Positions 12,360-63,430 of a stretch of 64,000 bases of DNA are shown in pieces. The notes under the pieces were generated by a model. The model worked only from the letters and a program-made list of their open reading frames with translations, did no database searches and was not told the origin of the DNA. A program made the translations under genes and the position numbers. This DNA is from Macrostomum lignano (lineage: Eukaryota): assembly GCA_002269645.1 (NCBI GenBank), contig NIVC01001604.1, positions 1-64,000 on the forward strand. Direction: 5' to 3'. The first letter of the stretch is position 1; every line of letters starts with the position of its first letter.

Positions 12360-13381
12360 ATGCATCGCGTCGTGTGGACCGACTAACAGTCAAACAACTC
12401 AAGAGTGAGCTGGGTAGCCGAGGCCTCTCAACCGCAGGCAATAAGTCGGCCTTGCAAGCCAGACTGAGACAACACGAGGGGCAGTCACAGCTTCAAGACG
12501 GCGGGACATCGGCATTGACATCGGCATCGGCATCGCCCTGTGCGCAGGAGGAGCTCCAAGACCAAGGCCGGTACCCACGGGAGGCGGACCTGGACGGCGA
12601 GATTCGGCGGGCGCAGAAACGGCTGCAGCTCCTAGAGCTTCAAACACGCGAGCGAGAGCTTCGTGAACGCGCCGTCGTGACTGCTCGTACAGAATCAGGT
12701 GAGCAGCAGAATCTTTTCGCTGAACTTATCAACCCAACAGGCCCCGTCAGCGCTAGAGCCAACCCCCGGCCGGTCGGGCAGCCGTGTCTACTCGTCAGAG
12801 ACTTTGTCGATGATCTGTCAGGCCAGGCTGACGAGCTGCTCACCAGGGGCAGCTCTGGCGGCCTCGTGCTCAAGAAGTCGACGACCAAGCTGGACGGCAT
12901 GACAATTGGGCAGTGGTTCGCCGGCAGTATGAAGGTCCTGCTTCAGATACTTGAAGACACAGCGCCGCAGCTGACCAGCAAGGGCCAAGTGTACAGCACA
13001 ACTGAGCAAGTCAAAGATTACGCCCAGTACAATGTCCAGGTGGCCGAGCTATTCGACAGATTCCCAGCGCACCGGGTGATCAGATTCGACCATGACTACC
13101 GCCAGCACCGCGCAGCCAACAGCCTTCGCTGGGGCAAAGACTGCGCCCAGATGTCGATCAGGCACCTGCTCAGCATTAAGACGGACCAGTACAATCAGAC
13201 AGCCAAGCGAAACCAGCCTAGCAACAAGAGCCGCGTCATGGGTCCGCGGACATCCTCAGGCCGCGAGCTGTGCTTGTCCTTCAACAGCACCAACGGCTGC
13301 ATGAGGAGCAACTGCCGATTCCTCCATGCCTGCCGAATCTGTGAGGGCAGCCACTCCGAGCAAAATCACGCAAAAAACTGA
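12360..13381 (+). CDS. gag: Gag-like ORF1 with an N-terminal SAP domain and C-terminal CCCH-type zinc finger
   Basis: LTVKQLKSELGSRGLSTAGNKSALQARL (SAP) and CLSFNSTNGCMRSNCRFLHACRICEGSH. The ATG at 12360 is one base out of frame (ATGCATCG vs expected ATGGCATCG = MASRR). Confidence 0.8.
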
Positions 13382-13455
13382 GCAAGCGCGCCGACACGGC
13401 GCGCGAAACCGATTTTACCCCTCCTGCTTTTAACTGCCTCGCTCAGCCCGCTCCC

Positions 13456-16017: not shown

Positions 16018-16088
16018 AGCGGTACCTACCGCCTTCGGTTGAGCGCGGTGCGCCGCTGCGCCTGGCTTCACTCCTCCCCTCAGCGTGA
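15060..16088 (+). CDS. Tyrosine recombinase (ORF3)
   Basis: SAM-like N-domain STRSAY; catalytic residues LRRANL (R), RSKTNQ (K), HSLRRGG (HxxR), GDW...ERY (W/Y). Confidence 0.95.
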   Translation: MLELCRCLPPSVSGPPPVVPGPGLSAPARRLLSQGFASSTRSAYASQCASWMRFCAAHRLQPLSAQPADVCNYLAELANNRLFSVSSLSCHLAAVSWLYKSNSVADPTRQPLVQLALRGARRLLGAAPRSKRALRPADLQRLHGVLRPEEPRDCAFWCACIVGWWAMLRRANLCVSGRFDPQRDLSASCIRPSRAGVILVIPRSKTNQFGARQHRVFLPQLPDGHPLCPVTALQKQLRINRPQDAQHHLFSTRTRRSTAPLTARTFARRLSAALRQAGFAEPARFSGHSLRRGGATSAAEAGIPIDSIMRVGDWASSAVERYLPPSVERGAPLRLASLLPSA

Positions 16089-16176
16089 CCTCCTCCCTGG
16101 TTTGGGTTTTTTGGACTCGTTTCGTCCGCTGCCTTTGTCGCCACGCCTGTGCCTTCCCTCTTGCTGCTTTTGGCAG

Positions 16177-32796: not shown

Positions 32797-34125
32797 ATGC
32801 CTTCCTGCCCCAGCTGCCGAGGCTTTGTGGCTTCTTCTGCATCATCCCGGGTCCCCGCCTTCCCTGCGAATCCCTCGACGCAACAGGCGCGCGCCCAACT
32901 CCGCTCTCTCTGCCTCTCGCTGGCGGTTGATCTAACTGGCACCCGCCTGCCAGCATCTCCGGCTCGGCTCTCTTTCCAGGAAGAGGCGAGGCAGCTCCAG
33001 GCGCAACAGGAAATGCTGCTGCACGACCAGGTGAGGCTCTGAGCATCTGTCAGCTTGTCGGACTTCTGGAAATTTATGTCACAACTGTTTCTCAGCGTTT
33101 AAGTGCTTCTTACCTTGCATTGTCTCTAGCTTAGGGGTCTAGCTCAGGTCCCTGACCCCTGCCTCAGTTCCAGCTCCGCCAGTCTCTCACCCTGACCCCT
33201 GCCTCAGTTCCAGCTCCGCCAGTCTCTCACCCTGACCCCTGCCTCAGTTCCAGCTCCGCCAGTCTCTCACCCTGACCCCTGCCTCAGTTCCAGCTCCGCC
33301 AGTCTCTCACCCTGACCCCTGCCTCAGGTCCAGCTCCGCCAGTCTCTCACCCTGACCCCTGCCTCAGTTCCAGCTCCGCCAGTCTCTCACCCTGACCCTG
33401 CCTCAGTTCCAGCTCCGCCAGTCTCTCACCCTGACCCCTGCCTCAGTTCCAGCTCCGCCAGTCTCTCACCCTGACCCCTGCCTCAGTTCCAGCTCCGCCA
33501 GTCTCCACCGGCTCCATCACCGCTGCACGCGGTGGACGGCGCTTTGGCCGATTTCGACTTCGCCTCGAGCGTCGAGTCGGCCTTCGCATTTCCTCCAGCC
33601 GGAGTTCTGGCCCAGCAGCAGCAGCAGCAGCAGCAGCAGTTCCAGCAGTTTCAGCATCCTCAGCATCCTCAGCATCTTCAGCCGCTTCTGACTTCGCATA
33701 GCGGATTGTTCTTTGGTGCCAACGACAGCCAGCAGCAGCTTCTGCTGATGCGCAGGCAGCAGCCGCAGATCCACGACGAAAATCAGCACCAGCAGCATCA
33801 GCAGCACCAGCAGCATCAGCAGCACCAGCAGCATCAGCAGCACCAGCAGCACCAGCAAAACCTTCAGCAGCACCAGCACAGTCCTAGCGACGTCCTTCTG
33901 TCGTCAACCACATGCGACAGCCATCAGCACCAGCACCAGCTGCTCCTTGGCTTCGGGGACGCCGAACTGCAGCATCAACCGCTGCAGCTGCAGCAGTCCT
34001 CATCTTCACTGCTGCTGAAGATGGAGCCAACGGATGCGCTGATGGAGGAGAAGCCGTCAGTTGCGACCCAATTCTGTCTCTCCCACAGCCAAATATCGGA
34101 GTTCGCCATGCAACAGCAGCAACAA

Positions 34126-34158
<33 letters not shown>

Positions 34159-37100
34159 CAACAACAGTCACAAGAGCAGCAGCCAGGGTTTGTCTGCCAG
34201 CAGTCGCAGCTGGACTTCAGTAGCTACCCCCAGCCGCTGCCCGGCTTCACCCTGCCGCCTGTGACGAGCCTCACGGGGCTGCAGTCGCGGTCAGCAGCGT
34301 TCAGCGAGGCAGCCACCTCGCCTGCGCAGCCGATCCTGGCGCCGCTGACCTCCGCTGCTGTGGCAGCAGCTGCAGGCTCCGGGCGCAGCTCGCCGGCCGA
34401 CACCCTGGAATCATCGTCCGCTGACGAGGCCGCTTCGAAAGGCCTGGCGTGTCTGGTGTGCGGGGACCACGCCTCCTGCCAGCACTACGGCGTGCGCACC
34501 TGCGAGGGCTGCAAAGGATTCTTCAAGGTAAAGCTGGTCGTGTTTTTCCGTAGTGCGGCATGGCGGGGCTTGGTGTAAACAAGGAGGGCTGCGGGAACCG
34601 TGGCACAACGCATTCGGCGACATCGTGCCATAACTAGCGATGAGACACTCCTGCCCACTCCACTGACTCCTGAGCACAATACATACTGGCACGCACTCAT
34701 GCACATGCTCAAACAGGGATCGTCAGGCATTGGTGTGAATCAGAAGACAATCCTCAGGCATTGGTGAATCGTTTGGCATTGGTGAATCGTCAGGCATTGG
34801 TGAATCGTCAGGAATTGGTGAATCGTCAGGAATTGGTGAATCGTCAGGAATTGGTGAATCGTCAGGAATTCGTGAATCGTCAGGAATTCGTGAATCGTCA
34901 GGAATTGGTGAATCGTAAGGAATTGGTGAATCGTAAGGAATTGGTGAATCGTCAGGCATTGGTGAATCGTCAGGCATTGGTGAATCGTCAGGCATTGGTG
35001 AATCGTCAGGAATTGGTGAATCATCAGGAATTGGTGAATCGTCAGGCATTGGTGAATCGTCAGGCATTGGTGAATCGTCAGGAATTGGTGTGAATCAAAA
35101 GCAAAATTAATGTGGCTGTGCGATGAATCGAACCCAGAGAGTAACAGACGCGTTTGCCTCGAGGCAACTCTTGCCCCCCATAGTGTGGTGTGGTGACGTG
35201 AAGTTTTTAGTGGACCACGGAATGTGTGTAGCCAAATATTTTTTCTAGCTGCCCTACCCTCACTGAATTTCCCTAATCGCATTTGCAGCGAACAATCCAG
35301 AAGAACGCTCAGTACACCTGCCAGCACAACAACGATTGCGTAATCGATAAAAAACGGAGAAACCGTTGCCAGCATTGCCGCTTTCGCAAGTGCCTGAAAG
35401 TTGGAATGGTCAAAGAGGGTGAGTGAGCAGTTCTCGTAGGTTATCAATTTTTCACAACCTGCCAGCTAAATCATCAGTCACCAGTGCAATTAATCCACCA
35501 AACTACTCAAAGCGTCAGTCACATCTCTGACCGACTCCCCATCACTAAAAGTCTTGACCCACTACTCAAATCACCAGTCCCAAACCTGACCCACTACTCA
35601 AACCACCAGTTTCAAACATGACCCACTACTCAAACCACCAGTCCCGACCCTGACCCACTACTCAAACCACCAGTTTCAAACATGACCCACTACTCAAACC
35701 AACAACTCTCGAAATCCCCCCAGTTGTCCGCTCGGACAGCCTCAAAGGCCGCCGCGGCCGCCTGTCATCCAAGGCGACACCGCCGGGCTACGCGACGCCG
35801 ACTACCGACGTGTCGGTCAACTGCGCCGGCAATGGAGCGTCGTTAGCCGTCTCGACAAGCGGCGTCGCAGCCATGGCAACCACAGCGGCTGCAGCGGCGG
35901 CTGTGGTGGCTACGACGGCTGTCTCAGCGGCAGGTTCAACTGCCGGACCACCACTGCAAAACGGCGCCGCCATCTCGTCGGCGAACTCCCAGACGGCGAT
36001 GACGGCGACGATGCTCTGCGTGATCAGCAGCGCCAACCTCAGCTGCGAGCCCGTGCTGCTGCTGTCGGCGCAGCCTGACGCCAGCGGCAGCGGCCTCGGC
36101 TGCGACTTGCTGGCCGCGGAGTTCGGCTCGGCGCTGGCGGCGAGTCTCGACGTAGCCGAGCAGTTCGCCGGCCAGGTGCCCGGCTTCGGCGACCTGCCGC
36201 TGGCCGACCAGTCCGCCCTGATTGTCTGCCACGGCCTGGATGTGGTGGTTGCCAGGGCGGCGTACAGGTGAGGAAGGGAAGGGCTGAGAGGGCTGCAGTC
36301 CCTTTCATTCACATGGTCCTCATCCCATAAGCCTTCAACAGGTGCATGGGCACCTTCCCGTAATCTGTCAGATTTGAAAGATCCGTTAAGAACATGCAGT
36401 TGCATTTTATTTAAAACCTCAGAGCTACGCAGCTGTCAGATCAAGAATTCGTGCTGGACAGTGGCTATCCCCTGTTGCCATGGAAACTGAGCTCGCTGCG
36501 CCTGCTAGACTGGCTGGAGTCGCTGCGAGGCTTGAGCAGCCTGATGGCGAATGTGATTCGAGACGACAAGCAGGCGTTCGGGGGCCTGGCAGCCAGCCTG
36601 TTGCTGTTTTTCAACCCGCAGGAAGGTGAGAGACACGGTCACCTGTATGTTCACAGTCCGCTGTTTGTTCACTGTGTTCAAGGTCACCTGTATGTTCACA
36701 GTCCGCTGTTTGCTCACTGTGTTCACGGTCACCTGTATGTTCACAGTCCGCTGTTTGTTCACGGTCACCTGTATGTTCACAGTCCGCTGCTTGTTCATGG
36801 TCACCTGTATGTTCACAGTCCGCTGTTTGTTCACTGGTTTCATGGTCACCTGTATGTTCACAGTCCGCTGTTTGTTCACTGTGTTTACGGTCACCTGTAT
36901 GTTCACAGTCCGCTGTTTGTTCACTGTGTTCATGGTCACCTGTATGTTCACAGTCCGCTGTTTGTTCACTGTGTTTACGGTCACCTGTATGTTCACAGTC
37001 CGCTGTTTGTTCACTGTGTTCATGGTCACCTGTATGTTCACAGTCCGCTGTTTGTTCACTGTGTTTACGGTCACCTGTATGTTCACAGTTTGCTGTTTGT

Positions 37101-39466
37101 TCACTGTGTTTACGGTCACCTGTATGTTCACAGTCCGCTGTTTGTTCACTGTGTTCACGGTCACCTGTATGTTCACAGTCCGCTGTTTGTTCACTGTGTT
37201 CACGGTCACCTGTATGTTCACAGTCCGCTGTTTGTTCACGGTCACCTGTATGTTCACAGTCCGCTGCTTGTTCATGGTCACCTGTATGTTCACAGTCCGC
37301 TGTTTGTTCACTGGTTTCATGGTCACCTGTATGTTCACAGTCCGCTGTTTGTTCACTGTGTTTACGGTCACCTGTATGTTCACAGTCCGCTGTTTGTTCA
37401 CTGTGTTCATGGTCACCTGTATGTTCACAGTCCGCTGTTTGTTCACTGTGTTCATGGTCACCTGTATGTTCACAGTCCGCTGTTTGTTCACTGTGTTTAC
37501 GGTCACCTGTATGTTCACAGTCCGCTGTTTGTTCACTGTGTTCAAGGTCACCTGTATGTTCACAGTCCGCTGTTTGTTCACTGTGTTTACGGTCACCTGT
37601 ATGTTCACAGTCCGCTGTTTGTTCACTGTGTTCATGGTCACCTGTATGTTCACAGTCCGCTGTTTGTTCACTGTGTTTACGGTCACCTGTATGTTCACAG
37701 TTTGCTGTTTGTTCACTGTGTTTACGGTCACCTGTATGTTCACAGTCCGCTGTTTGTTCACGGTCACCTGTATGTTCACAGTCCGCTGTTTGTTCACGGT
37801 CACCTGTATGTTCACAGTCCGCTGTTTGTTCACTGTCACCTGACTGTTCACGATCACCTATCTGTTCACTGTCACCTGACTGTTCACGATCACCTATCTG
37901 TTCACTGTCACCTGTATGTTCACGGTCACCTGACTGCTCAAGGTATTTTTGTCTGTTCAAGTGGTAGTCTGCCTGTTCACGGTAGACTGGCTGTTCACTG
38001 TTGTCTGCCTGTTCACTGTAGTCTGTCTGTTCACTGTAGTCTGTCTGTTCACAGTAGTATTCTGTCTGTTCACAGTAGTAGTCTGTCTGTTCACAGTAGT
38101 CTGTCTGTTAATTCACTGTAGTCTGCCTGTCCACTGTAGACTGGCTGTTTATGTGGTAGTTTGTTTTGTCACACCACACTAAGGGCTGGTCGCAGCGGTT
38201 CATGCGCCAGTTGCATCGCACGCAATTTCAGAGAGATTCCTCATTCGGAATCCCCGCCCCGAAAATACCTCTCAAATATTCGAGGCCACGCGTTCATACA
38301 TTTGCCGGGATGTTCGATAAAAAGCTCGCAGCTGCAGAGCGACTTCAGGAATTTGCCGGCGGAGGGCTGGCTGGCTGGCCTGACTGGGCCTGCAGCCCGG
38401 GCCCGTTACGCATGCGCCAGCACCTCTTTTTTCTTCACAGTGCGTTCGGAACTGGGCCGCTGCGCTCCCAGTACTTCGTTTCTAATTACAGTATATCCTC
38501 TCCGTAAACAGTGAGGAATAAGCGAGGAAAAAATCCCAATAGTAGTTTATGAAGAGCGAAATCCTCTGTCTGCAACTGAAAGTCTGCAGTGAATCAGAGG
38601 GATTGGTCAGCGCTGTCAGATGGGCGCTCGGTCATGCAAAGCTCCCATCCGCCCCTTCCAGATCCACCCAAAACTCCCTCCAGATCCTCCCAATAATCCC
38701 ACCGCCCTTCCACATCCTCCCAAAACTCCCATCCGCCCCTCCAGATCCTCCCAATATTCTCATCCGCCCCTCCAGATCCTCCCAATATTCTCATCCGCCC
38801 CTCCAGATCCTCCCAATATTCTCATCCGCCCCTCCAGATCCTCCCAATATTCTCATCCGCCCCTCCAGATCCTCCCAATATTCTCATCCGCCCCTCCAGA
38901 TCCTCCCAATATTCTCATCCGCCCCTCCAGATCCTCCCAATATTCTCATCCGCCCCTCCAGATCCTCCCAATATTCTCATCCGCCCCTCCAGATCCTCCC
39001 AATATTCTCATCCGCCCCTCCAGATCCTCCCAAAACTCCCATCCGCCATCAACACCAATCCACGCGCATCAGCATCCTTTCCCCTTAGTGAAAGCCCCAT
39101 AGCCAAACTCCATATTTCGATGCTCAAGACATGCGCCCGTCTGAACTGCACCACACCGCAGAGCGGCTCATTCTGGATGACAGCGGCCAGCTGTACAGCC
39201 TGCAGCACAAGCTGATCGAAGTGCTGAAGGTCCACTGCTGCAGCGGGTGCGTCGCCCAGACTAGACGGGACTCGACCTACTTGAGCAGTCTGCTCAAACT
39301 GCGCCACGCTGTGCGCAGCAGCGTCCGCCAGTCGCTCCTACCAGCCATGACGGCCGACCCGTCCTCTGTGCTGCTGCGCAACGCGCCGCCGAAACTGCGG
39401 GACGCCCTCGGCTGCGCAGCGGACGCTGCGGTGGCATTTGGCAACTTCAACAAGCCATCCAGCTGA
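32797..39466 (+). CDS. NR4A: Nuclear receptor NR4A/HR38-like. Exons ~32797-33030, 33502-34527, 35289-35418, 35724-36267, 36423-36625, 39129-39466
   Basis: [29 protein letters not shown]|RTIQKNAQY...[12 protein letters not shown] and the NR4A-specific A-box [17 protein letters not shown] blocks FAGQVPGF..L...[24 protein letters not shown]. All five introns are GT-AG and phase-compatible. First exon start uncertain. Confidence 0.92.
33150..33501. repeat. 40-bp minisatellite x~9 in NR4A intron 1, ending at the acceptor
   Basis: CCTGACCCCTGCCTCAGTTCCAGCTCCGCCAGTCTCTCAC units. Confidence 0.95.
34755..35090. repeat. 18-bp minisatellite (GGTGAATCGTCAGGMATT) x~18 in NR4A intron 2
   Basis: Directly visible. 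Confidence 0.95.
35548..35700. repeat. ~32-bp repeat (GACCCACTACTCAAACCACCAGT...) x~4-5 in NR4A intron 3
   Basis: Directly visible. Confidence 0.8.
36631..37930. repeat. 45/36-bp compound minisatellite (GGTCACCTGTATGTTCACAGTCCGCTGTTTGTTCACTGTGTT..) in NR4A intron 5
   Basis: Directly visible; starts a few bases after the donor at 36626. Confidence 0.95.
38645..39045. repeat. 31-bp minisatellite (CTCATCCGCCCCTCCAGATCCTCCCAATATT) x~10 in NR4A intron 5
   Basis: Period 31 (38761, 38792, ...). Confidence 0.95.
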
Positions 39467-40190
39467 ATGCGAAGGAATCAAAGAGGCGCTTGATGGGGAG
39501 ATGAGCCTCTTTGATACCCCGGATTACCCCGGAGAAACAGGCGGAGCTATCGGATGGCATTGACAGAGACATACCCCATAAGCACGCGTCTTGGGTCTCA
39601 ATTAGACCTGTTGAAAATAGCCGATTTCGAATTCTATTTTTAGAAGCCAGGGGATTCCCCCGAGAAACATAGGACTACCCCATTGACTGGGTGGCGTCAT
39701 AGACAGCACTATATTTTTCCAAGCCCCAGAGGAGATTTTGTGGCCGAAAGTAACGGGAAAGGTTCCTCTAAAAAATCGATACGGAAAGCTTTAGGAAAAG
39801 TCACTTGAAGGAGGAATTTCATTCTTATCTCCCGCCGCTTTGTCCGCTTTGAAGAGTCTGAAGCGATGCTGTCACACCCTTAACCTGCTTTCAGCCCTTG
39901 CAGAGCCTTGAAACTGACCCCCTGCTTGCTTGATCAAGTGTCAAAAGCTGACAGCTTAGTTACTATTTCATATTATTTTTCCACTCCAAATAACTGCTTT
40001 TTTGCGCTTTTTACCCAACTGTCTATGTGTAGGCCTTTTGTCAGCGCTCGCCGGAGGAGCCGCTTGCCTTCCACCTGCGACCTGAGCGGTTTGCCCGCTT
40101 TAACGCATTCTCACCAAGCCAGCCAGCCAGCATGCTTTTCTGCGACTTTGCCACTTTTTCTACACTGCGCGTTCAACTCAACTTGTTTTT

Positions 40191-41924: not shown

Positions 41925-42516
41925 GAATGCCCTTTGTGGCCCTAGCAGAGCGGCGCAGTGGCTCTTCAGGCTCCGCAAGATCTGATACCGCCAACTCATC
42001 GCCGGTCAGAGTGTCGCGACTTTCCTAGTCATTTCTTAGTTCACCTTCACTTGTTGCTGTAATAGCAGCTGGTAACGACTAGCCACTTGTCGCCATTGAA
42101 GTCCAGCAGATCACAACCAACCTTGGTCCATGGTGCATTCGGAATCTCATGGTTCAACAGTGGTTTCTTTGGGTTGGCCGGCTGAAACGTCTGACACGCG
42201 CCGCAGTGCTTCACGAAGTTCTTAATGCCCTCTGACATGCCTGGCCAGTACAGAATTTGACGAGCTCGGGTCTCCGTCTTGCCCGCGCCAGCATGACCGT
42301 GGTATAAAATTTGCAGAATCTTCTGCCGCAACGATGCTGGAACAATAACGCGATCCAACTTCATCAGCACGCCATCATTGTAGGCCAAGTCCTCCTTGAA
42401 GCTCCAATACGGACGGACAGAGTGGCAAATGTTCCGAAAGTTGCTTGGCCAACCCACCTGAACCAACCGGGCTACAGCCCTCAAGTCCGAATAGTAGTAG
42501 GAAAATGGTACAGTCT
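41925..42516 (-). pseudogene. Ty3/gypsy pol fragment (integrase H2C2 zinc domain, start of rve, C-terminal LRRSAR remnant)
   Basis: HGHAG...ILYWPGM...CGACQ and PWTKVGCDLLDF; EPLRRSAR near 41930; the catalytic core is deleted. Confidence 0.85.
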
Positions 42517-42780: not shown

Positions 42781-43080
42781 ATGAGGAGGCCCCTGGATGT
42801 GGTTGAGTGCCCATTGGTTAAGTGTCCTCTACTCATGCGTTTCAAGAACGATGTGATTGATCAAAAGGCCCGTTCCAGCAAAGGGTCCGATTGCTTGGAG
42901 TTTCCGAGTGGAAGAGATATTATTGGTCGAGAAAGCATTTAGAAGTAATTTCCTCGGAATTTCCTGGCAATGCAAGGAAGGGATTCTATTGGTCGAGGGG
43001 CCCCTGGTGGTCCCAGTACTGGGATTTGTTTGGTCAACACACCCAGCGTCAGAAGGGGTCCAGGACCCTTTATAAACATA
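42781..43080 (+). promoter_or_regulatory. Putative Pol II promoter (reverse CCAAT boxes, GGAATTTCC, TATAAA near 43071)
   Basis: Three ATTGG motifs, GGAATTTCC near 42956 and TATAAA about 60-80 nt before the PC4-like ORF. Confidence 0.45.
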
Positions 43081-43129
43081 GCACCTTGCGCTCGCTATGC
43101 TTCATGCCATTTTTAAAAAAATGAATTTA

Positions 43130-43402
43130 TGATGGCTTTCAGAGAACTACTATATGGTTATCGCTATCAGCCTGGTACCGGACACACGGACCATCAGTAT
43201 TCGAAAGTGGTTCAAGTCTGGCGAGGATCATCGGCCCGATGTGCCCGGCATGGAGCTCACCATCCATCAATTCCGACACCTGGCCAGCTTGAAACAGCGC
43301 TTGGAGGAGTTCGCTGACAGGAAACTCGATGCGCAATGCCTTCTGGGTGGCAACAGGCAAGTGCATGGTGGTCCAAGGTGCAAACGCCAATGCAGAAAGT
43401 GA
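43130..43402 (+). pseudogene. PC4/Sub1-like ssDNA-binding domain ORF (5' frameshift; second repeat truncated)
   Basis: YMVIAISLVPDTRTISIRKWFKSGEDHRPDVPGMELTIHQFRHL aligns by eye to PC4 [43 protein letters not shown]. Confidence 0.5.
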
Positions 43403-45000
43403 AAAGAAGAAATGTTTTAATGTGACATTTACGCAGGAGATGGTGAGCGCCTCTTGATATTGTTTGCTGCACCACAGTAAGACGGATGAGAGTAACATGA
43501 CCCACTGCTTCTCCGCTTAAAATATACTACAGTTAGGCAGGAACTCTAACCTTATGGTTATGCAGAGTTTAAGGTACGTAGATATCATCGTGACTGCATT
43601 GGCATCACCGAGTCAAATGCTTGAGCGTGTGTGCAATATACCAGTAGCTTGTCAGAAGCACTCAAAGATTGATTAAAAGATTTTAACAAAGGGATACAGT
43701 CATACATTGGCCATAAGAAGTTAATATCAGACATTGAACCTAAGTATGGAAACATTGTACAATAACGGTAAACGAAAAACATCTAATTTTTTTTTCGTTT
43801 CAAAATTACTGGTAACAAACGCAGGAGTAAATAAGACTCTTTTTTTGCTTTCCTAACACATCAACAGAGTTATCATCTGCAGTGACATTTTGCAAGCAAC
43901 TGACTGAGTATTGATAAAAATCAATATTCAAAACAATTTTGCTATAGCTCCTACTACGACCACTACTACTACTACTACTACTACTGGCGAGGTGGCGAGC
44001 TGAGCGAGGCGGTTGATCGGCGAAGGCAGCCAGCGGGTGCATGCCTGGGCCGGAGGCCGCCGGCGTGGAGGAGCATCGGGCGCACCCGAATCTGGAGACG
44101 AGGGGTGAACTTGCGACCTGACTGGAAACCTGAACTCCCAGAATAACTCTAACACAACCAAGGCAAAACATTTGAGTCTGAGCTAACCTCCCCCAGCCGG
44201 AGCAACCAGCTGCCTGTATAATGCTAAAGACCGAAAAAATCCTCCTCAAGTGTTGCTATAAACCCTTGCCGTTGCTAATCCCCGACAGACCCCGACAGAG
44301 GCGAAGGGAATAACCAAATATTATAAATAAAGGCTGCCTCAGCCCCCGAGCGGTGTTAGCTCGGATTTCAGTGAGATGAGGTTCAGCAATTGTTAACTCG
44401 AGTTTACCATTTATTTGAGTTACAAAGCAAAATGATGAGCCGTGATATCGTGTGTAAGCCCTCAGAAATAAACACGCGCCTCGGCGTTATAGCTCGTTTC
44501 TGCCCTCTGCAGCCCATCAATATTGGTATATTATATTTTATGTCCGCAAATTAGCGGGCAGAAAATGACATTAACTGCCCGGTAATTTGCGGGAAGTTTA
44601 ATAAGAGTTTCACATACGAGCTCTAATTGTGAAAAGCTTCGTTTTCATCAAATGAAAGTGTCTTGTAGTGATCCGCTAGTTTTGTGTTAGGCGTCGCACT
44701 ATTGTCAGCAGCTTCCCTCGCCCTCACCCTCGCCCTGGGTTGCTAGCTGTCTGCCGCTGGGCAGCTTCCTCCCTTTTTGCTGCCTGTTCTCTGTCGCCCC
44801 CCTCTCTTCTCTGCGCTCTTGCTTGCTACCATGAGCTGCTCTGCTGTGGCCTGCTCTGCGTTTCGTTCCTGTCCTGAGGTCAAGCTGGCGGCCTGTTTCC
44901 CTTGTCTTGTTTTCTCGGAGTTCTTAAGTGTTTACATGTTTACTGCACTCGTTGGCCCGTGTTTACGGGAGAAATCACGTGCCTTCTCTAAGGTAATAGG

Positions 45001-45163
45001 TGACTCATGTTTCTAAAAATAGATACTGAGTCATGCGGCCCAGTGCACTTTACCCGCAGACCCTGCCTTCTCCAAGGCGGGGGGTGACGTCAGTCCTAAA
45101 AATAGAACAGAGTCACGAGGTCCGGCGCATACTGGCGCACCGGGGATTTCCTGCCTATAAATA
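45001..45163 (+). promoter_or_regulatory. Dense inducible enhancer/promoter: AP-1 x2, MEF2 x2, CRE, GC box, kappaB, TATA
   Basis: TGACTCA 45001, CTAAAAATAG 45013, TGAGTCA 45027, GGCGGG 45076, TGACGTCA 45085, CTAAAAATAG 45096, GGGGATTTCC 45142, TATAAATA 45156. Confidence 0.75.
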
Positions 45164-45189
45164 CGTGCCCCTCACCCTTGGTTCAGTCA

Positions 45190-46295
45190 AGGATCGTTCT
45201 TCTTTAGTCTAGTTTTCCAGACTTCGTTCAGTTGCGCATTTAAGCTATCTGTAATTGCCCTGACCAAACTTAGACGCCAAAGCCTAAGGGAGGCTAACAC
45301 TGCCTTTTCAGCCACCCCCTGAGCCCGGCGGGATCTGCTGACCAGGATGCCTTGTTCATTAATCTGCGAATCTGCACGCTGTGCTGAGTTCGTTGACTTG
45401 TTTATTTCGTTCCGACGGGAAGCTCTCCTCACCGAAGGCCGAGACCTAAAGGAACTGGTGGCAGCACTACCGACGCTACTAAGAGCTAGTAAGAAGCTTT
45501 CGAGAGAAGAGGCTCGAGACTTAAGGTAAAGCTCGTAGGCCAATGGCGTCGTAGTTCACGAGACCATCTCCAAGCCGAGCAGAGACGGTTTCACGGCTAT
45601 TCTTGGACTGTCGGATAGCTGGATGCTCCGCTATCCGGACATGTCCCTCATCTCTATCGGGCTGATGCAGATTCAGCTCTTTAGCTTTGAGTCTGACGCC
45701 ACCCGTCCACCGCCCCCGGAGAAGCGTAAGCGGGCAAGCGGGGGCTCTGCCGGGCGGAAACACCCAAAAAAGAAGCTCCTGTTCGTCACGACCCTCCTTA
45801 CGAGGACGTGGGCCCTGACAGAAGGAAAGCCGCGAAAGCTTCAGCAACAGGTGGACGTGAAAAGGGCCGGAAACCCGCCCGGAACACTATCCGATCTGGT
45901 CTGACTCAGCGCGCAAAGCAGCTGCTAGTACCGCCAAGGCCAACAACCACAGCAACCCCCAGCCCAGTGTAAACACTGCGCCCCCCCCCCCCGGAAAACC
46001 GGGCCGAGAGCGAGAATGCCGCCCAGGTGGCGGCCCCGCCCTCGACCATGGAGACCATCCGGGAGGAGCCCATGGAACTGGAGACTGGAACTATCGGCGA
46101 GGCAGAAGAGACAGCTCTCCTGCACAACTCGCCTTGGGCCGGCAGGAAGCTGCGCGGACCACTCGTGGAATGCCCAGAAGACTTGGTCTCGAAGCTTTCG
46201 TTACAAAGAAAGACTGCTCAGGTTAACCCAATATATTCTGAGAGAGAATTCCAATCAGAACTCGACAAACTTGATAGGATTCCCCGGATTCCCAA
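45190..46295 (+). pseudogene. Decayed ORFs of unknown mobile-element or viral origin downstream of the TATA box
   Basis: One frame runs 45190-45904 with three internal stops and a basic NLS-like PEKRKR...RKHPKKK. A second Pro/Glu-rich frame runs ~45905-46295 and is cut by a minisatellite. Confidence 0.4.
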
Positions 46296-46296
46296 A

Positions 46297-46950
46297 CTGC
46301 CTGCTGTTTTGCATCACTGCCTGTTGTTTTGCATCACTGCCTGTTGTTTTGCATCACTGCCTGTTGTTTTGCATCACTGCCTGTTGTTTTGCATCACTGC
46401 CTGTTGTTTTGCATCACTGCCTGTTGTTTTGCATCACTGCCTGTTGTTTTGCATCACTGCCTGTTGTTTTGCATCACTGCCTGTTGTTTTGCATCACTGC
46501 CTGTTGTTTTGCATCACTGCCTGTTGTTTTGCATCACTGCCTGTTGTTTTGCATCACTGCCTGTTGTTTTGCATAACTGCCTGTTGTTTTGCATCACTGC
46601 CTGTTGTTTTGCATCACTGCCTGTTGTTTTGCATCACTGCCTGTTGTTTTGCATCACTGCCTGTTGTTTTGCATCACTGCCTGTTGTTTTGCATCACTGC
46701 CTGTTGTTTTGCATCACTGCCTGTTGTTTTGCATCACTGCCTGTTGTTTTGCATAACTGCCTGTTGTTTTGCATATCTGCCTGTTGTTTTGCATCACTGC
46801 CTGTTGTTTTGCATCACTGCTTGTTGTTTTGCATAACTGCCTGTTGTTTTGCATAACTGCCTGTTGTTTTGCATCACTGCCTGTTGTTTTGCATCACTGC
46901 CTGTTGTTTTGCATCACTGCCTGTTGTTTTGCATCACTGCCTGTTGTTTC
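46297..46950. repeat. 20-bp minisatellite (GCCTGTTGTTTTGCATCACT) x~32
   Basis: Directly visible. Confidence 0.97.
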
Positions 46951-47128
46951 ATAGAACAAACACTTTCCCAGCCTCTTGACACGCCAAGAATAGACAATAG
47001 TAAAAAAGCTGGAAGCTGAGGATTTGCCAAGTCAGTCAGTTGGCTGCATCACTAGAGGGTGTATTTCCACTTCTGTGCTTCGATGCGTTTAAACAAAACG
47101 AGCCGACGCTCTCAGCAGGCCGCCCGCG

Positions 47129-47905
47129 TCACGGCGTGTCGGACCGCTTGCCGAACCTGCAAATTGCAGCGGTGCGAGATCGTTGCTGAGGACCTCGGGA
47201 TCATCCATAGCTCGGCGCATTCGAGTTCTCCAGCTCTTCCCACCCACACCGCCACTGAGGCGTCAAGCTACAGAGGCGGAGGCTGAATGGTGTGCTGAGC
47301 ACAGGCAAAGCAGCAGAGTCTGCTATTGTTTCTGGTGCAGCTAAACAGCATTGACGAGCGCGTCTGGTCGTGTCCTGGCTTTTTTGTCTCAATCCTTTTC
47401 TCAAATATCCTCTTTCTAGCTGACTCAGTCGTGAAAATCTCCCTGCCGACTCATGGGTAAAATGAGAGTTTTAGGGCCGGGGAACCTACTGCTAAATCTC
47501 CCAAATACAGCCCTCAAAGACCAGGGCCGCTGGGCTTTTTTCCCTGCTCCAACTGGCCAAAGCAGCACCCTAAGCATCAAGAGCGCCGCTATCAAGACAC
47601 ATCCAATTCACCTCTAGATAACTCAAAAACACTTCAACTCAAAGTAACATCTTTAAATTTCCGAACAAACCAGTGGCTCACCTGGGCCGAGCGATGAGGC
47701 TCATGTAGCTGCGCAGGTTCTTCAGGTATTCCTTAAACTCCAGCTCCCGCGGGCCCGGCTTCTGCACGCGGTCGCTGGGGTCGCTCAGCTGCTCGCGTTT
47801 GTCCCAGGCCGGGCTGGCCCCACCGCCCGAGGCCTGCAGCAGCACCAGCAGGTACACGAGTCCCAGCAGGATGAGGGCCCTGGAACCGGTTGTCAATGCC
47901 GACAT
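47129..47905 (-). CDS. NPF: Neuropeptide Y/F precursor, 83 aa (exons 47905-47682 and 47156-47129)
   Basis: Signal peptide; KR site; 39-aa EQLSDPSDRVQKPGPRELEFKEYLKNLRSYMSLIARPRF followed by GKR. Tyr at positions 10 and 17 from the C-terminus. GT-AG intron splits the Arg codon (AG|G) of RF, the conserved NPY/NPF intron position. Confidence 0.95.
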
Positions 47906-48012
47906 TGCTCAGAAGGTTCTTAACGAATTAGGAGAGAAGGTTCCGGACTTCCGAATCTCTGTTGCGTGGCTGTAGTTTGGAGGGCTGCAGGGCGGTAACG
48001 GGTCGCACCAGC

Positions 48013-48020
48013 TTTAAATA
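48013..48020 (-). promoter_or_regulatory. TATA-like box (TATTTAAA) upstream of NPF
   Basis: About 108 nt upstream of the ATG; a CCAAT motif lies near 48052. Confidence 0.5.
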
Positions 48021-48169
48021 CCTGTGCACTTCCCCGCCCCGTGCTTGTGCGTAGCCAATCGGAAATTCTCGTTAAATGTTTAATAATGGGAAAAGCATTT
48101 TCAGCCTCGCTCGCTTCCTTAATTTTCCAATCTGGAAGCCGTTTGCGACATTGCGATGCCATTGCTACA

Positions 48170-51701: not shown

Positions 51702-54700
51702 ATGGAAACAGATGCTGATGAAGTTTTAAAGGAACTCTACAATATAATGACTAAAATTTCAGAGAACAAGAAGAACAGTGATAATGCAGAGGTAAGTGAC
51801 AACAGTTTAAGTTAGAATTCAGTATTGACCACCACAGGTTAGGCCTATGACTATGTATGTTTAATGAAGTTTTGTATGCATATATCATGTATACATTAAT
51901 TTTTTTATGTTCTGAATAGAACATGTTATTTGTTTTTGGATGCTTTCCACCATGATATGCAATGGGAATGCTATATGAAAGTTTTTGTGATTAAGAGCTT
52001 TGATAGGCCCTAGACTGGTTTTCAATTCAAGATTTATATAATCTGGGTTAGAATTAATTAATCTAATCTTGAACAGGTCTTAATGCCTCTATTCAAGTTT
52101 AAGTTATTAAAATCAGTCCCTATGAAATAAAAAATCTTAAACTTAAAATTCCTCATTTATTATATATCATACATGCACAACCTTGGGAATCACTTGGCCA
52201 TTTCAAGGAGGCCGTAGCCTAGCAGCCATAGTCAGGAAGGTGGCCTTTGCCATGGAAAATTCCGGTGCACACAAGGGGTCCTTGGTGCACCTGGCACACA
52301 ATCATGGTGCACACTAAGGTCCTTAGCGTATGTGGTACATAATTGTTGCGCATGCGGCGCATAAAGTCCTTGATATATGTGGTGCTATACACAACTTTGG
52401 TGCATAAAGAATCAGAATAGAATCTTTATTAGCATAAAACTAGTGTAGCATATTGAGTCTGCATGAATTCTAAGAATTTTGTAAATTTGTCGTAAAATAT
52501 GGTGGCACACAAATTGTCCCAAAAAATTATTCTGGCGCACACTATGCCACCTTCCTGACTATGGCGCAGCAGTAGTATAGCTGCCCTTGGTGTGCCAGCA
52601 ACCCAGGTTCAATTCCAAGTGCAGTCACATTAATTTGGGGCTGAATTGGAATCACGGCTTGGCTCTGCTTATGCAATTAACAGCCTTGAGAGCCAACCCC
52701 CCCAAGGCGCAGTGAAGTGTACATGCCAATGATAATATAAAGTTAGGGCTGCTATACACTCCTGTGTGAGTGTGTGCCTGTGTATGTATCTGCGCGCTTG
52801 TATGCCTGCTCAGGGGAGTTGGCAGAATGGGCAGTAATGCCTCTCGCCGGTTGTGTGTCTATGTCACTTAAAGTGCACCAGGGTGCATACAACCCCCTTG
52901 CCTCTTATAATAAAAAACTTGACCATTCTATTGGCAATACATACATGTAAGTTGCTATTACCTGAGAGTAGTCACATGACTACTATTTTGTCCAATAGCA
53001 ACTTACATATGTGTGTTGCCAATAGAAATGGCTAGGTGAATCCCTAGGTTGTGCCCAAGCATGATATATATCCCAGTAGTTGGTTATTGACCTTTTTGTT
53101 AGGTCATCTTGACATCTTCCAAATCCTAGATCTAGGATTTATTAATATAATCCATTTCAGTAATAGCCACTTTGGTAATTGCTGCTTTAATAACTGCCAC
53201 TTTGGTAACAAAACAGATTTACAACTACTAATGCTATATCTTTATGGTAAAAGACTTTGGCAACTATTAGTTTAATAATTAATATTTCATTTCAACTACT
53301 TTATTGCCAAGTTTGGTTCAATTTTCTAACTACACAAAATTATAATTTGTTTAAATTTATGGAATTATGTATAAACTTTTATAAATAATTTAAAGGTGGC
53401 AATGAACATTATGAAAGTTGAAAATTACAAATTTTGAAGTAAATAATTTATAATATAAATGAATAAAAAGTAGTTTCTATAAATGAAGTTGCTAACTCAA
53501 AGATTCTAATCTACACAATATTTTGTCAACAGGATGTCTTAGCTTGTATATACATTTGGCGCTTCCAAAAATTAAAATAAAAATATATCTAGATTAAAAA
53601 TACATATAGTTTTCTGCTTCAATCCAAAGAAGTTTGCAAGAATGTATCTCAAATTTCAATTATTTTTCATCATGTTTTCTTTAAAGTTGGCTTGCAAAAT
53701 CTTTTTGAGCATATCAATCAATACATATTATTATTTTCACTTGTTACCAAAGTGGCTGTTACCAAATTAGACTATTACCCAATTTATGCACCTAATCTTG
53801 AAAAGGTCTCTATGCTTTAATCCAAGTTTAGGTTGATAATTTCAATCCCCGTGAATAATCTCCCTACCTTAAAACCCTTCCATTCCCTATGCTTGGCTGG
53901 TTGGCTTTAAGCCATAAATAAGTTAGGTTGAAATTGAAGTTGAAATTGGGGTTGGTCTTGAATCATTCATATTTGTTTCTTTGCTAACACTGGAACCAGA
54001 TCAATGGAAAGAATAATTCAGTATGAATATAGCCTTGAACTGCCTCCATGGGTAGAGGTCTTATGAGAATAAGGATTAAAACAAAATGAGGTTCAGTTCA
54101 TGATCATCAGGTATTGAGATGAGACAAATTGGGACTAAAGTTTTTAGTGAAATACAAGAGGCTTGCTTATTATCACTTTAATTTTGTTGAAAGCTGTCTG
54201 TATTTGTAAGGAATTTGAGATAAAGTTTAATATATGCTTAAAAATAAATGATATTGATTAGGTGTAGGTTTACCATACCTAAATCTTCCCCATTTTCAAT
54301 TCATGAAAATTTGGGTTCCAGGTTGGGTTTGATCTAAAAAATTAATGAAATTACCCGAAATTTGGCACTTGGTTTGGGTACCCGAAACAGCACTAGCTGG
54401 GCATGCCTAGGTGCTCTCATGCATGATGCTGACACCCTATTAAACTCAATACTCCATCCAATCACTGCGCCAGCAGAACGCGGCCCTGTTCAGGAAGATC
54501 TTGGAGCTTCCACGCAGTCAGAGCGCCGATTCCCGATCGAAGCGACTCGCTTCCCAGTTTGTCGGCCGGCTGTTCAAGGATTTCCCGGAGGACCAGCCGG
54601 CAGCATTCGAAGCCATTGTTGACCTTGTTGAGGATGACGACTTGAATGTTCGGAAGCAGGCGATTAGTGACTTGCCTAAGCTGTGCAAGGATGTGCCAGT

Positions 54701-58067: not shown

Positions 58068-59401
58068 ATGATAGGCTCCGAGCTTGACGATCTCGAAGTT
58101 GGTTTTATATAACCGACTAAAAGCATAGGTTTTTACTTAGTCGATTTGTTTTTTGTCCGTTTCTCTGTATTTATTACCAAAATTTAATAAGTCCATGCGT
58201 TCATCAAGCTGTCCGGTCTGTCGCAATCGCTAGTTTCAACAGGCTTGTTATAAACAGATGCGTTAGTAAATTGGTACCCGTCCAAACCATCTATATCTTA
58301 ATTTTATCCTTGTGTCACTGTTTTATGTATTAAAGTTATAAACGACTTGCTCTGTTTTATGTTCAAGCCATAGGATAGTCACCCACGAGTCGTTCCGTTC
58401 CCATCCCATACATCTCGTTGCAGCAATACCTGTATTCTGTATTTCCCAGTGTTCTGGTGTAGCTAAACTTGCAGACAGCTTTTCTGACTAGGCTGCAGTT
58501 TGCAGACAGCATTTAGCTCTGAATTTGTCCCTTGCTGTTGAGGCGGAAATTACTACGTGCACTATACATTTATTAGTTAACTAAGCGAATTAAAAATTGA
58601 TAACAATTAAGTAACAATGCCTACATCTAAGTTTACTTCCTTGCTCACCTAAAAAGAATTCTGTTGCAGTCTTGTTAATTTGGGGAAAGGTAGCTTTTTG
58701 GTAATATTTACTGATTTACTGAAGAAAAAACAAATAGTTTTTTTATTGCTTAGCTATCATGCATTTTGGGGGTTAAAGCAGATAAAAATATTTGTGTTCG
58801 TTTAACGCACAAATGGGACGATAAAGTATGGTCTAATTCAGTTAATTAAAGCAGTATTTAAATGATACGTATTAACTTCTTAAATATTTCAACATATTGG
58901 CTAATTTTTATCAATTGGCCAGGCAAGCCAGTCGAAGCAAATAACGGTACAATACCGACCGTATTTAGTCTAAGTAATTAGTAAGGCTTTTAAACTGTAG
59001 AATAAAATACAAAGTAAAAAATAATTATGTAATAAAATAATTCAAAACTCTTGTTGAATGAAATGCAGTAAAGTAAAGTAAACTTTGTTTTAAAAATATG
59101 TTTACACGTAATTTTTCGTATTTCGTGTGGCGAATCTGGCGATAGATTTATGGAGCCTTGCCTTGCATAGTCCATTTTGGTTTAAATACTGATTCATAAT
59201 TTCAAAACTTTTATTCTTTACCAGTTTTTTGCACGAACCTGTAGGCCTACGAAAAATTTATGTAGTTTTAAAACTAATGAGACTTGGGAGTTGACATTAA
59301 GAGTAAGTAAGATAAGTAAGAGTAAGACTAGGGCTGGGGCCTAAGACTTAGACTTATTTATGATGAAAACTAAGGCAGTAGGTCTACTATAACTAGGCCT
59401 A

Positions 59402-59970
59402 GCCACCTGTATAACTTTCGCCGACACATTTTCAGACAGATCTTCCAACACTTTTTTACGACACTTAAAATGTTGAAGAAACAGTTCTTGTATCTTGCTC
59501 CCATGAAGGGATCTTTTAAACAGGGAAACAGGGAAATGTTTCTCAAATCACAAACTTACATTTAATGGTTTGATCTACTGTATTTATCTGACTGAAGAAT
59601 AATTTGAATGAATCTGTCATGTACTGCAGGCTGCTGTGTAGTGTGTACTTAACAAACATACATGTAAGCTAAAAAAATTAAATGCAGTAAAGTAAAAGAT
59701 TGCCGCTTACATGGATAGTACGAGCTACATGTACATCACCTAGCTCTAAGAAGTGACATTTTAAGTGTCGGAAGATGTGTTGGCAGAATTTAACCATATG
59801 ACACTTTTTCAGACACTTTTTGCAGCATTAATTTAAGTGTCAGAAAATATGTGTTGGCAAATGTCAACTGTTACAACACTTTTTTGGACATTTTTTGCAA
59901 CATTTTAAGTGTCATAAAAAGTGTCGGAAGATCTGTCTGAAAATATGTTGGCAAAAGTTATACAGGTGGC
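59402..59970. mobile_element. MITE with ~72-bp imperfect TIRs starting GCCACCTGTATAAC and 3-bp TSD (CTA)
   Basis: 59402-59473 is the inverse of 59899-59970; CTA on both sides. Confidence 0.85.
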
Positions 59971-61815
59971 CTAGCCTAGTCAAACATTTTAAAGCAATAA
60001 ACTATGTCTAGCAGTTAGGTTAGGACTGAATAGCATTGTGACTATTTTAAAATTCGTGTAGTCCTATTGGCATTGCGTAGGCCTAATGCACACTGCTAGG
60101 CTAGGCCTCCTCATGCATTAGACTATTGATTGCTAGGGGGCCTACAGTCTGGGTTTTTTGGGCCATATGCAGTTTTTTGGCCCCTTAAAAATCTCATTGG
60201 CAACTGGATGTTTTTGGCATCAGAGGCCAATCTAGAAACTTAATTTTCCCTATGCCAGTTGCCAATTTCAAAAAAATGATTTTGTAGGGCCTAAGTATAA
60301 TATAACTATAACTATAATATAAAATATACACATAAATACTAACATCATATTTAATATTTTGTTGGCAGACAAAATGACTAAATTGTATTTTTGCAGAGTA
60401 GCAAACAGTATGGCAGCAGACAAAACAACTGTCAACCATTTTATTTTCTCAGTCTTAGGCATTCCTAGTATTAGAAAGTCACGGCTTCTAAATGTTATAT
60501 TGCCCTGAAAGAGACAATTTACTGCTCTGAGGTGTTTTACTACTTTGTGGTGATCTATTTCTCTGGGCAATCTTTTGCTCTCAGGCAATTTACTACTCTA
60601 AGATGGATGTTTTATTGCTCTGAGGCAATCTATTGCCCTAAGGTGATCTATTGGTCTGACTCTCCCTTTGAGGTAATTTTTGCTTTCTAATGGATCTTAA
60701 TTTTCCCAGTTGGGGCTTTTAATTCTTAATAAATAAATAAGTCAAAAAACTTCTTATAGATTAGATTTAGTGAGTAATAAATTTTGCTTGCAAGTTTGCA
60801 GGTTTGTAGATCTCTGCAAGTTAGCAAGTTGCTTTCCTTGGCCTACTCAGGGCTACTATTTATATTAGTTGAGCAGTCTATTTAAAAGAAATTTATTTGC
60901 AAAGTATTATTTTATATCACAACATATGCTAATAATAATAGGCCTATTCATTCCTTATTTATATTATAAGTTACTATGCAAATAAACAAGGTATTATTGG
61001 CATGGTGCTATATAGATAAGGCCCTAATATTGTTGTTATTGGCATTGGATTATAGGAATAAATATTGCCTGTTTTCTATATCTATATCTATAGCCACATC
61101 TCAATTTTTTCTTATAGACTAGGCCTAGCCTATTTGTATCCATACAGCTATATATCTATATCCCTATCCATAGCTAGTAAACTTCTTATAACTTTTTTGC
61201 TATTGTTGTAATATACTATTTGCATTAAGTGTTAGGACTTAAGGTTGGATAATATCATATTTTCAATTTTTAAGACTTGAGATCTATTCTTTTGAGACAA
61301 CCAAGATTTGATTGATATTTGTGATTAATCCTAATTAGCATCTAGTAATAGTAGGCCTATTGACACTATTCTCTTTATCAATGCTAATAATAAAAGGAGA
61401 ACTAATTATTATATAATTAAGCTTGTTAGTAACTTGATATATATTAAATATAAATATGATAATATCATAGTCACCAATAGTCAGAGTCATAAATCTTGAC
61501 TTTTTTGAAATATCAAAACTGATATCAAGATTTCAAAAAGTGCCAAGATCTTAATGGTTAAGATTGAGATCAAGATCTTGTCTAATTCCTAATTAGGACA
61601 TCTAACTATTGGCTATTATAGCTATAAAAATAAAACCTTAAATAGTATTCTGCAAAATGTATTTGTGGCATTCAACATAGATCAATTTAATTGCCTTTTT
61701 GACTATTATCTTTCCTCTCTTCTTTTCCCTTTTTCTTTTTTATTTCATTTCTTTGCCCTCTTTTGTTCTCCTTTCTCCCCTCTCCTATTGCAGCTAATGA
61801 CCATTATTTATACAT

Positions 61816-61969
61816 GCGCAACCTTGGGATTCACCCGGCTGTTTCTATTGGCAACACACATGTAAGTTGCTATTGGCTGAGAGTAGTCACATGACTACTA
61901 TTCTGTCCAATAGCAACTTACATGTGTGTGTTGCCAATAGAAATGGCCAGGTGAATCCCTAGGTTGCGC
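61816..61969. mobile_element. Palindromic MITE family A, intact 154-bp hairpin
   Basis: GCGCAACCTTGGGATTCACC...GGTGAATCCCTAGGTTGCGC; arms pair over about 60 bp. Confidence 0.85.
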
Positions 61970-63430
61970 CCAAGCATGCCATTATTGCAGATAGAATTTG
62001 GTACAAATTGGCCTCTGGCAGTGTAAGTACAGTCTGACAGACTGGTACAGTTTGGCATAGGAAAATGGGGTCATCTGGTGCAGTTTAGACCTTGGCTATA
62101 ATAGGGTCTCTTCCCCTCTCCCCTTTCTTCTCTCTTCTCCCCTTCTCTCTCCTTTTTTTCTTTCTCTTCTCCCCTTCTTTCCCTCCCCTTGCTCCTCATA
62201 TCTTTCTTATAATGTTTAAGTAACTAAAGTAATAGTCTCCTATTCTTATTGAGATCTTCTATGAGAGAGACAGCCTGCTTATCAGTTCTTAAGAAGCCTC
62301 ATTTGCAATCTAGCCTTTTTAATTATGGCAAATACTAGTCAGCTTCCCCATTGACTTCATTTATCTTAACTTTAGCCCCCAACAACCAACTAAAACATGC
62401 ATGTGGGATTAAAACTCTCTTGTTGAAGTCCCCAACCCCAAGGACCCCATTGAGCTCCCCTCCCTGAAAGTGAAAATATTCATCTTACATTATTTCCTTA
62501 CCTTCCCAACCCCATCCTAGTCCTTGATCCCAGAGACTTAAGGGCTCCCTCTACATTGAAAGTGAAAATATTCATTTTAACTTTAGCCCCCACTACCCAA
62601 CTACAATATGTGCTCATAAAAATGGTATTGAAAATCTATTGCTTAAGTCCTAAATTCTAGAGACTATAATATTTATACTAGAATTAAATTTTTAACATAA
62701 ATATACAATACTGTTAGCCTCATATAAGAATCATATAGTTGGTATAGGAGCTATAATAATAAGTAAGAATATCAATACTAGTAAAAATATGAAGATTCTA
62801 AATATAATTATATATTTAAACAAGTAGTCTATAGCAATAGGTCTTTAAAAAGAAAGGTACTAGGCCTAATTCAGTGACAATGCTATTGATTAAAGAATGT
62901 GTTCTTTGTATAAAAATACACCTTATTTTACCTTATTTTGTTATTAATATAATAAACACTTTGACACTTTTTTTGCTACCATTGAACATTGAAATTAAGA
63001 AATAGTTTTGCTTAAGTGACCTATAATAAGGCCTCTATAGATTAACACGAGTAGAAGCGAACTGAATGCATCTACCAATGCTCTTAGAACTCAACTCCAT
63101 TGCAGACATAACACTATTCTCATTGCAGGGAACCTTGGCTAACCAAATTTACATTAGAATAGCCTATAAGGCTTCTATATAGACTATAGAGTATCTTTAA
63201 AAAAGACAAAAATATACATCAACTTAATAGAATCATTTAAAATCCCATCTTGTTTGTTGTGCTAAACCCTGGTGGTATAAATATGAGTTAAATTCCTCAA
63301 TTTACCCTAATTTTTATATTTTAAATTAGGGTTGCAGAGTTGACCATGAAAATAACATAGTATTTATTTTTTACAATTTTATTATTTTTACTCTGGTAAT
63401 CCTGCATTTGCAGCTGTTTGAGCTGTCCAG

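Follow-up and report, generated by a model that had tools for sequence, protein, structure and literature searches.

A stretch of about 260 bp in the genome of Macrostomum lignano (44929-45188 of the window, that is, of the whole 64-kb stretch of DNA analyzed) is probably a well-formed stimulus-type promoter of a familiar kind and of transposon origin. Clustered CRE, AP-1 and MEF2 sites together with a TATA box place it, at the level of sequence, in the immediate-early or stimulus-inducible class. It is located between an NR4A gene and a neuropeptide F (NPF) gene, amid transposon debris (Table 1). At roughly even odds (a probability of about 0.5), we consider it to be a one-directional, U3-like and inducible RNA polymerase II promoter, the 5' control region of a dispersed repeat or retroelement that is truncated here and has lost its body.

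Table 1. Features of the promoter region and its surroundings (positions in the window).
Feature	Position	Strand	Remarks
NR4A-type nuclear receptor gene	33475..39466	+	DNA-binding-domain exons to 34527 and 35289-35417
Strict MEF2 plus kB-type site	39634..39661	.	about 170 bp past the presumed NR4A stop
Retroelement-type integrase zinc-finger fragment	42050-42499		upstream of the cluster, in the NR4A-NPF interval
Hairpin, 24-nt arms, 88% complementary	44544..44592	.	z -8.45; 0/200 shuffles
Forkhead-type sites (TGTTTAC), three	44929, 44937, 44960 (44929..44966)		extend the cluster upstream
E-box CACGTG	44976..44981		one of three in the window
Enhancer unit 1	44985..45068	+	AP-1, MEF2, AP-1
AP-1	45001-45007 and 45027-45033
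MEF2	45013-45022 and 45096-45105
Enhancer unit 2	45069..45152	+	GC-box-like, CRE, MEF2, AP-1-like, kB-type
GC-box-like	45076-45082
CRE	45085-45092
AP-1-like	45109-45115		6/7 match
kB-type	45142-45151		overlaps an NFAT-type core at 45147
TATA box	45156..45163	+
Initiator (Inr) consensus TCAGTC	45183..45188	+	predicted +1 at 45185; distance from the TATA start, 29 nt
Multicopy segment, predicted leader	45332..45514	+	frame matches exons of two unrelated gene models
Donor-like AG/GTAAAG	45526	+
Internal non-LTR retrotransposon (LINE) fragment	45535..46175	+	3' portion of ORF1, as far as its junction with the endonuclease/RT ORF2
20-bp minisatellite	46296..46949	.	32.7 copies
Neuropeptide F/Y precursor gene	47129..47905	-	two coding exons: 47682-47905, 47129-47156

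Employing textbook consensus strings, we found all eight motifs of the original prediction where it had placed them; the three forkhead-type sites were absent from its list. The motifs differ greatly in how rare they are. No other perfect CRE occurs in the 64 kb, and the cluster holds two of the three strict MEF2 sites and one of the five kB matches of the window. The forkhead 7-mer occurs 23 times, nine of them inside a 45-bp tandem array at 36.6-37.8 kb. Matches to AP-1 (15), the GC box (81) and TATA (69) are common across the window, and because of this they are weak evidence taken alone. No SRF or EGR consensus is present within the cluster.

A suspected duplication of the MEF2 and AP-1 unit turned out to be real. 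The segments 44985-45068 and 45069-45152 form an 84-bp diverged tandem repeat with 51 of 86 columns identical, which 0 of 5000 shuffles equalled. Both units follow the plan [AP-1/CRE]-MEF2-[AP-1 or near AP-1], with the CRE at 45085 pairing with the AP-1 site at 45001; the GC box and the kB site occur in unit 2 only. Because one unit was duplicated, the eight sites do not represent eight independent events. In an alignment whose anchoring on the motifs biases the comparison, identical columns made up 20/24 within motifs versus 31/62 elsewhere (Fisher p 0.004; p 0.017 on the better-aligned part), a difference which hints that selection may have kept motif columns better than spacers.

Six AP-1, MEF2, CRE and kB sites of four classes fall within 165 bp, and the second-richest spot of the window contains three, of which two overlap. 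Block dinucleotide shuffles of the window never gave more than four sites or three classes (0/1000), nor did local shuffles give more than three sites (0/20,000). Because the motifs had been picked after the sequence was read, we used letter-permuted motif libraries as a control, run on the real window with tandem repeats masked. No permuted set of four motifs reached six sites or four classes (0/1000). By raw count with the loose MEF2 pattern, at least six sites were reached by 64 of 150 libraries of 20 motifs and by 148 of 150 libraries of 40. For libraries of 4, 20, 40 and 100 motifs, the information-weighted all-site score (strict MEF2) was reached by 0/400, 0/150, 0/100 and 5/40, and the information-weighted distinct-class score by 0/400, 0/150, 6/100 and 40/40, the latter score being not significant against the 100-motif library. 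The cluster exceeds chance, yet less overwhelmingly than "eight sites" implies. We consider it extremely unlikely that the cluster is functionless, with short consensus words aggregated by chance and amplified by local duplication. The choice of motifs after the sequence was seen, the ease with which larger libraries equal raw site counts and a duplication that roughly halves the number of independent sites would all be in keeping with such an origin; however, the weighted scores hold against libraries of 20 to 40 motifs, and the sites are near-optimal, functionally coherent and positioned just upstream of a TATA-Inr pair.

That pair is the only one formed by any of the 69 TATA matches, and an Inr occurs at that spacing at 1.2% of positions. 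An Inr at this spacing points the promoter to the plus strand, with transcription predicted to start at 45185. The original prediction had proposed the promoter of a mobile element, bidirectional because decayed ORFs diverge from it. Its reading as a mobile-element promoter is supported in part by the plus-strand TATA/initiator anatomy, the stimulus-response sites and the position amid transposon fragments, but bidirectionality is not: there is no minus-strand TATA in 44601-45200. Nor do decayed ORFs diverge. The longest upstream minus frame (72 aa) was equalled by 1055 of 2000 shuffles, a chance length probably because the strand is purine-rich, and had no Pfam match above the cut-off; the longest minus ORFs with an ATG start measure 29 and 37 aa; the downstream "ORF" comes from the interior of a LINE ORF1. 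It is very improbable that a single unknown element or endogenous virus had a bidirectional promoter here, with two divergent decayed genes. Such a version would accommodate the A/G-rich open frames on the upstream minus strand, the hairpin at 44544 and a 23-nt, 74% inverted repeat (44704-44726 / 45320-45342) that brackets the cluster, but the one minus frame of unusual length (116 aa) heads towards the promoter. A polyomavirus-like divergent unit was rejected on the same downstream LINE ORF1 and chance-length upstream frames.

The 116-aa frame just mentioned belongs to a minus open frame at 45187-45537 (to 45555; 116-122 aa) in the multicopy segment, which ends at the predicted start of the promoter. 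Only 8 of 2000 shuffles gave a frame as long (one of three frames tested), and searches of the ESM Atlas and Pfam found no recognizable relative. Best ESM Atlas scores of 0.77 for this frame and 0.80 for a 60-aa plus frame were uninformative.

Downstream of the promoter, sequence with copies elsewhere starts about 150 bp past the predicted start site. Relatives of 45332-45514 were found in 2 of 253 candidates, with 71% and 85% identity; these are P0011, an ankyrin/sulfotransferase model, and P0012, an RGS model named as M. lignano. Both gene models are apparently chimeric. On the evidence of these two protein models, the segment appears to be a dispersed repeat that gene predictors have picked up. 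The ATG at 45347, which opens the 60-aa plus frame, corresponds to a Thr position in both related copies, so this ORF is probably no conserved gene; its length is unremarkable (424/2000 shuffles). In P0012 (UniRef A0A1I8H467), the part related to 45332-45460 is the first exon of the RGS model; this is either an artefact of gene prediction or a chimeric transcript driven by the repeat.

The LINE fragment that follows matches five M. lignano gene models with up to 88% identity; its frames are broken and it is truncated on both sides. A sixth match, P0010 (repetitive, E 1.8e-4), was dropped as noise. Homology starts in the middle of ORF1 at about 45539. In P0009, similarity stops at residue 981, and an endonuclease domain begins at 988, followed by a reverse transcriptase and later an RNase H domain. 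Since the LINE ORF1 starts within the protein here and breaks off where ORF1 meets ORF2, it is not the promoter's own gene. The arrangement also differs from an intact LINE 5' end with an internal promoter: ORF1 does not begin just after the start site, and nucleotides +28 to +32 read GTTTT, unlike the DPE consensus. An intron 45526-45685 of a small spliced gene was rejected because the stretch is LINE ORF1 coding sequence. Further searches gave no matches: none of 327 protein candidates of 101-324 aa matched 45347-45901 (read with X at two stops), exact protein look-up found 0 of 8 window ORFs, and none of 11 local frames scored above the Pfam cut-off. Rfam returned one sub-threshold match and no ribozyme in 38-50 kb, no tRNA genes were found, and blastn of 44500-45540 against plasmids and phages gave no match.

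To what extent does the region resemble an LTR? A U3 with enhancer sites, a TATA box and a predicted start is present at the sequence level, and the cluster and the downstream multicopy segment may be parts of the same repeat. Self-BLAST found no second copy of the cluster in 64 kb, an absence compatible with a solo LTR, which would have no partner. Among 1113 TG/CA pairs, flanking duplications of 4, 5 and 6 bp numbered 4, 1 and 0 versus 5.1, 1.3 and 0.3 expected, so termini with target site duplications are at chance level. There is no AATAAA or ATTAAA on the plus strand from 45156 to 47300; a poly(A) signal could have been lost by truncation. Neither of the two TGG in 45185-45540 follows a CA within 3 nt, as a primer-binding site would; a tRNA primer site at 45456 was rejected, with no preceding CA and with homologous copies running across the position. 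No gag or pol was found downstream, the protein found there being LINE ORF1. Because the cluster lacks a partner repeat, a poly(A) signal and a primer site, and its termini are at chance level, we did not file it as an LTR.

Debris makes up most of the 7.7 kb that separate NR4A from NPF: an integrase zinc-finger fragment, tandem arrays, a hairpin, a LINE piece and the multicopy segment. The NR4A gene, whose identity rests on NR4A1/NR4A2 being the top four PDB matches in both searches, ends 5.5 kb upstream of the cluster; its final coding exon was assigned by eye, without a Pfam match, and the end at 39466 is presumed. The NPF gene, 2.7 kb from the cluster, converges on the predicted transcript of the promoter. 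Its exon 1 shows 100% identity with M. lignano A0A1I8JDA1, which establishes the host species, and exon 2 was read from the sequence. Inspected by eye, 47980-48070 (minus strand) looks like a compact promoter of NPF itself, with a TATA-like sequence, a GC box and CCAAT. The first host coding gene on the plus strand downstream of the cluster is API5, whose start was placed by eye near 51.7 kb. The strong hairpin precedes the forkhead sites by about 340 bp; a Helitron end there was rejected, as no CTRR was seen near either side by eye. A promoter-like stretch at 42800-43402, with several CCAAT boxes and a TATA-like sequence at about 43071, is positioned ahead of an 82-aa ORF (PC4-like by eye, without a Pfam match) and preceded by a 15-copy, 18-bp array with CCAAT in each unit. 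By eye, a short triplet tail and the frame before it at 43951-44110 (minus strand) look like an RTE-type LINE 3' end.

The original prediction did not mention the neighboring NR4A and NPF genes, from which the main competing explanation arises: the cluster may be a host-born, stimulus-responsive enhancer of NR4A or NPF, with the TATA-Inr pair giving an enhancer RNA or non-coding transcript and the transposons inserted later. We regard this as possible though unlikely. The location of NR4A is in its favor, as is the distribution of sites: the stretch from the NR4A stop to NPF contains every strict MEF2 site of the window (three, thus all 3' of NR4A), the only CRE and three of the five kB sites (two overlapping), and the second MEF2 and kB pair, at 39634-39661, is of a kind found within 50 bp in 1 of 300 window shuffles. 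According to the accessible part of PMC12103072, mammalian NR4A genes are immediate-early genes under a CREB/MEF2/AP-1 programme, and c-Jun and CBP are reported at the Nur77 promoter in the part of PMC11904867 available to us. However, the canonical TATA-Inr geometry and the compact tandem duplication suit a promoter, multicopy DNA begins right after the cluster, and the 12.8 kb containing NR4A and its upstream region has no strict MEF2, CRE or kB site. In planarians, nr4A is a muscle gene that is up at wounds only by 48 h, as far as the accessible text of PMC6534381 goes, and the adjacency itself is possibly a coincidence. By eye, the 39500-39800 module also contains a CRE-like variant and further kB-like words, and has a 30-nt, 70% internal repeat at 130-bp spacing.

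Instead, a stimulus-induced host gene, non-coding or lineage-specific, could have its promoter and first exon here (the exon running from 45185 to the donor at 45526), with the LINE fragment and the minisatellite in its intron; such a gene may be antisense to the 3' end of NPF, or its next exon may lie far away. The TATA-Inr pair, the single donor-like site and the related first exon of the RGS model P0012 fit this arrangement, but it appears improbable considering that the "exon" is multicopy with a non-conserved ATG, that the related gene models seem chimeric, perhaps as artefacts of prediction, and that no poly(A) signal occurs up to 47300. The mobile-element and host-enhancer readings can both hold if the host took over a transposon promoter. 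A bolder combination is about as doubtful as the host first exon: a Macrostomum element family carrying a vertebrate-style immediate-early module (MEF2 + CRE/AP-1 + kB/NFAT + forkhead) fired by wounding or calcium, with the present copy co-opted as an enhancer of NR4A and/or NPF and a divergent Rel-domain protein reading the kB sites.

For the U3-like promoter that we favor, the course of events may be pictured as follows. One [AP-1/CRE]-MEF2-[AP-1] unit was duplicated in tandem, after which the spacers drifted, the sites were retained, and one AP-1/CRE site came to differ between the two units. Stimulus-activated bZIP factors (Jun/Fos, CREB/ATF) and MEF2 would act on the duplicated unit, helped by forkhead and bHLH factors and by a Rel-domain protein at the kB/NFAT-type site. 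With factor binding and inducibility as predicted, wounding, calcium or cAMP signals would trigger plus-strand transcription from about 45185. The transcript would cross the multicopy leader, the LINE ORF1 fragment and the minisatellite, and by this route would encode no intact protein.

U3 regions and viral enhancers can contain tandem enhancer repeats (about 75 bp in MLV, 72 bp in SV40), and the kB/Sp1/TATA array of HIV and the CRE repeats of HTLV-1 are U3 enhancer-promoters. The cluster resembles them in its tandem enhancer unit of about 80 bp and in the compact order of GC box, kB site and TATA, but differs in that the R-U5 poly(A) signal, the primer-binding site and the termini were not found. 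In vertebrate immediate-early promoters and enhancers (Nur77/NR4A1, c-jun, Arc SARE), MEF2 adjoins CRE/AP-1. The same juxtaposition is seen here, and an NR4A gene is the neighbor of the cluster; however, the cluster lies 3' of NR4A, in transposon debris, and in a phylum in which classical NF-kB is hard to identify. The closest analogue in design that we can cite is the BZLF1 promoter Zp of EBV, which, as described in the accessible part of PMC2134958, is stimulus-inducible and combines a CRE/AP-1 element with repeated MEF2D/Sp1 elements in about 230 bp. The gene under Zp encodes an intact viral transactivator, whereas no intact gene is present at the cluster, and the analogy is one of design only, with no sequence kinship expected.

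The closest precedent within the species comes from LTRs of M. lignano (Mlig-id115 and others) that have acquired host heat-shock elements, a finding validated with reporters according to the accessible part of PMC12801592. In both cases stress-response sites lie upstream of TATA in a transposon promoter, but the cluster has bZIP, MEF2, kB and forkhead sites and no paired LTR or pol. A canonical heat-shock element occurs nowhere in the window, which sets the cluster apart from the heat-shock LTR family. None of three strings containing the motifs was found, on either strand, in the five supplementary files of the same paper, in which long cells are cut and alignments may split strings. A literature search that covered few subscription journals found no paper describing the cluster.

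The kB label is doubtful in a flatworm, and flatworms may lack classical NF-kB. In planarians, direct NF-kB homologues are hard to identify, and seven divergent Rel-domain factors and a conserved NFAT5 are described (PMC13563047, accessible part). One survey found no p50/p105 in Platyhelminthes (PMC11432056, in the portion available), and M. lignano has no TLRs according to the accessible text of PMC8609888. In the literature search, no statement on Macrostomum Rel proteins was found.

Other mobile elements are present in the window. Positions 1-26704 contain two tandem copies of a Maverick/Polinton-type endogenous element, with domains of DNA polymerase B, rve integrase, an adenain-type protease, an A32-type ATPase, a PLA2-like domain and an adenovirus pX-like protein. 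The copies are 99.7% identical over 10.5 kb, and the excess of gap openings (16) over mismatches (9) between them suggests long-read indel errors in the assembly. A tyrosine-recombinase retrotransposon at 12093-16173 (SAP-domain ORF1, RT/RNase H and a phage-integrase-type ORF), which we take to be of the Ngaro/DIRS type, seems to have integrated into the Maverick array. Small palindromic or MITE-like repeats are located at 52917-53063, 61816-61978 and 59392-59980; among them are a 138-bp element present twice and another whose inverted arms measure 65 bp.

Direct tests of the 260-bp fragment are feasible because M. lignano has working transgenesis and published ATAC data. According to the accessible part of PMC11398382, the single-nucleus ATAC data include samples taken 3 hours after amputation; its main text does not mention MEF2, AP-1, CREB or NF-kB. 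The fragment could serve as a compact reporter of injury or activity. If NR4A or NPF were controlled by the cluster, this would show that control of NR4A by MEF2/CREB/AP-1 reaches flatworms. Stress-responsive transposon promoters are already known, and heat-shock versions have been proven in M. lignano. A version responsive to wounding or calcium, if true, would extend this theme to the regeneration signal itself, and a wound-responsive element could reach neoblasts and the regenerated germ line.
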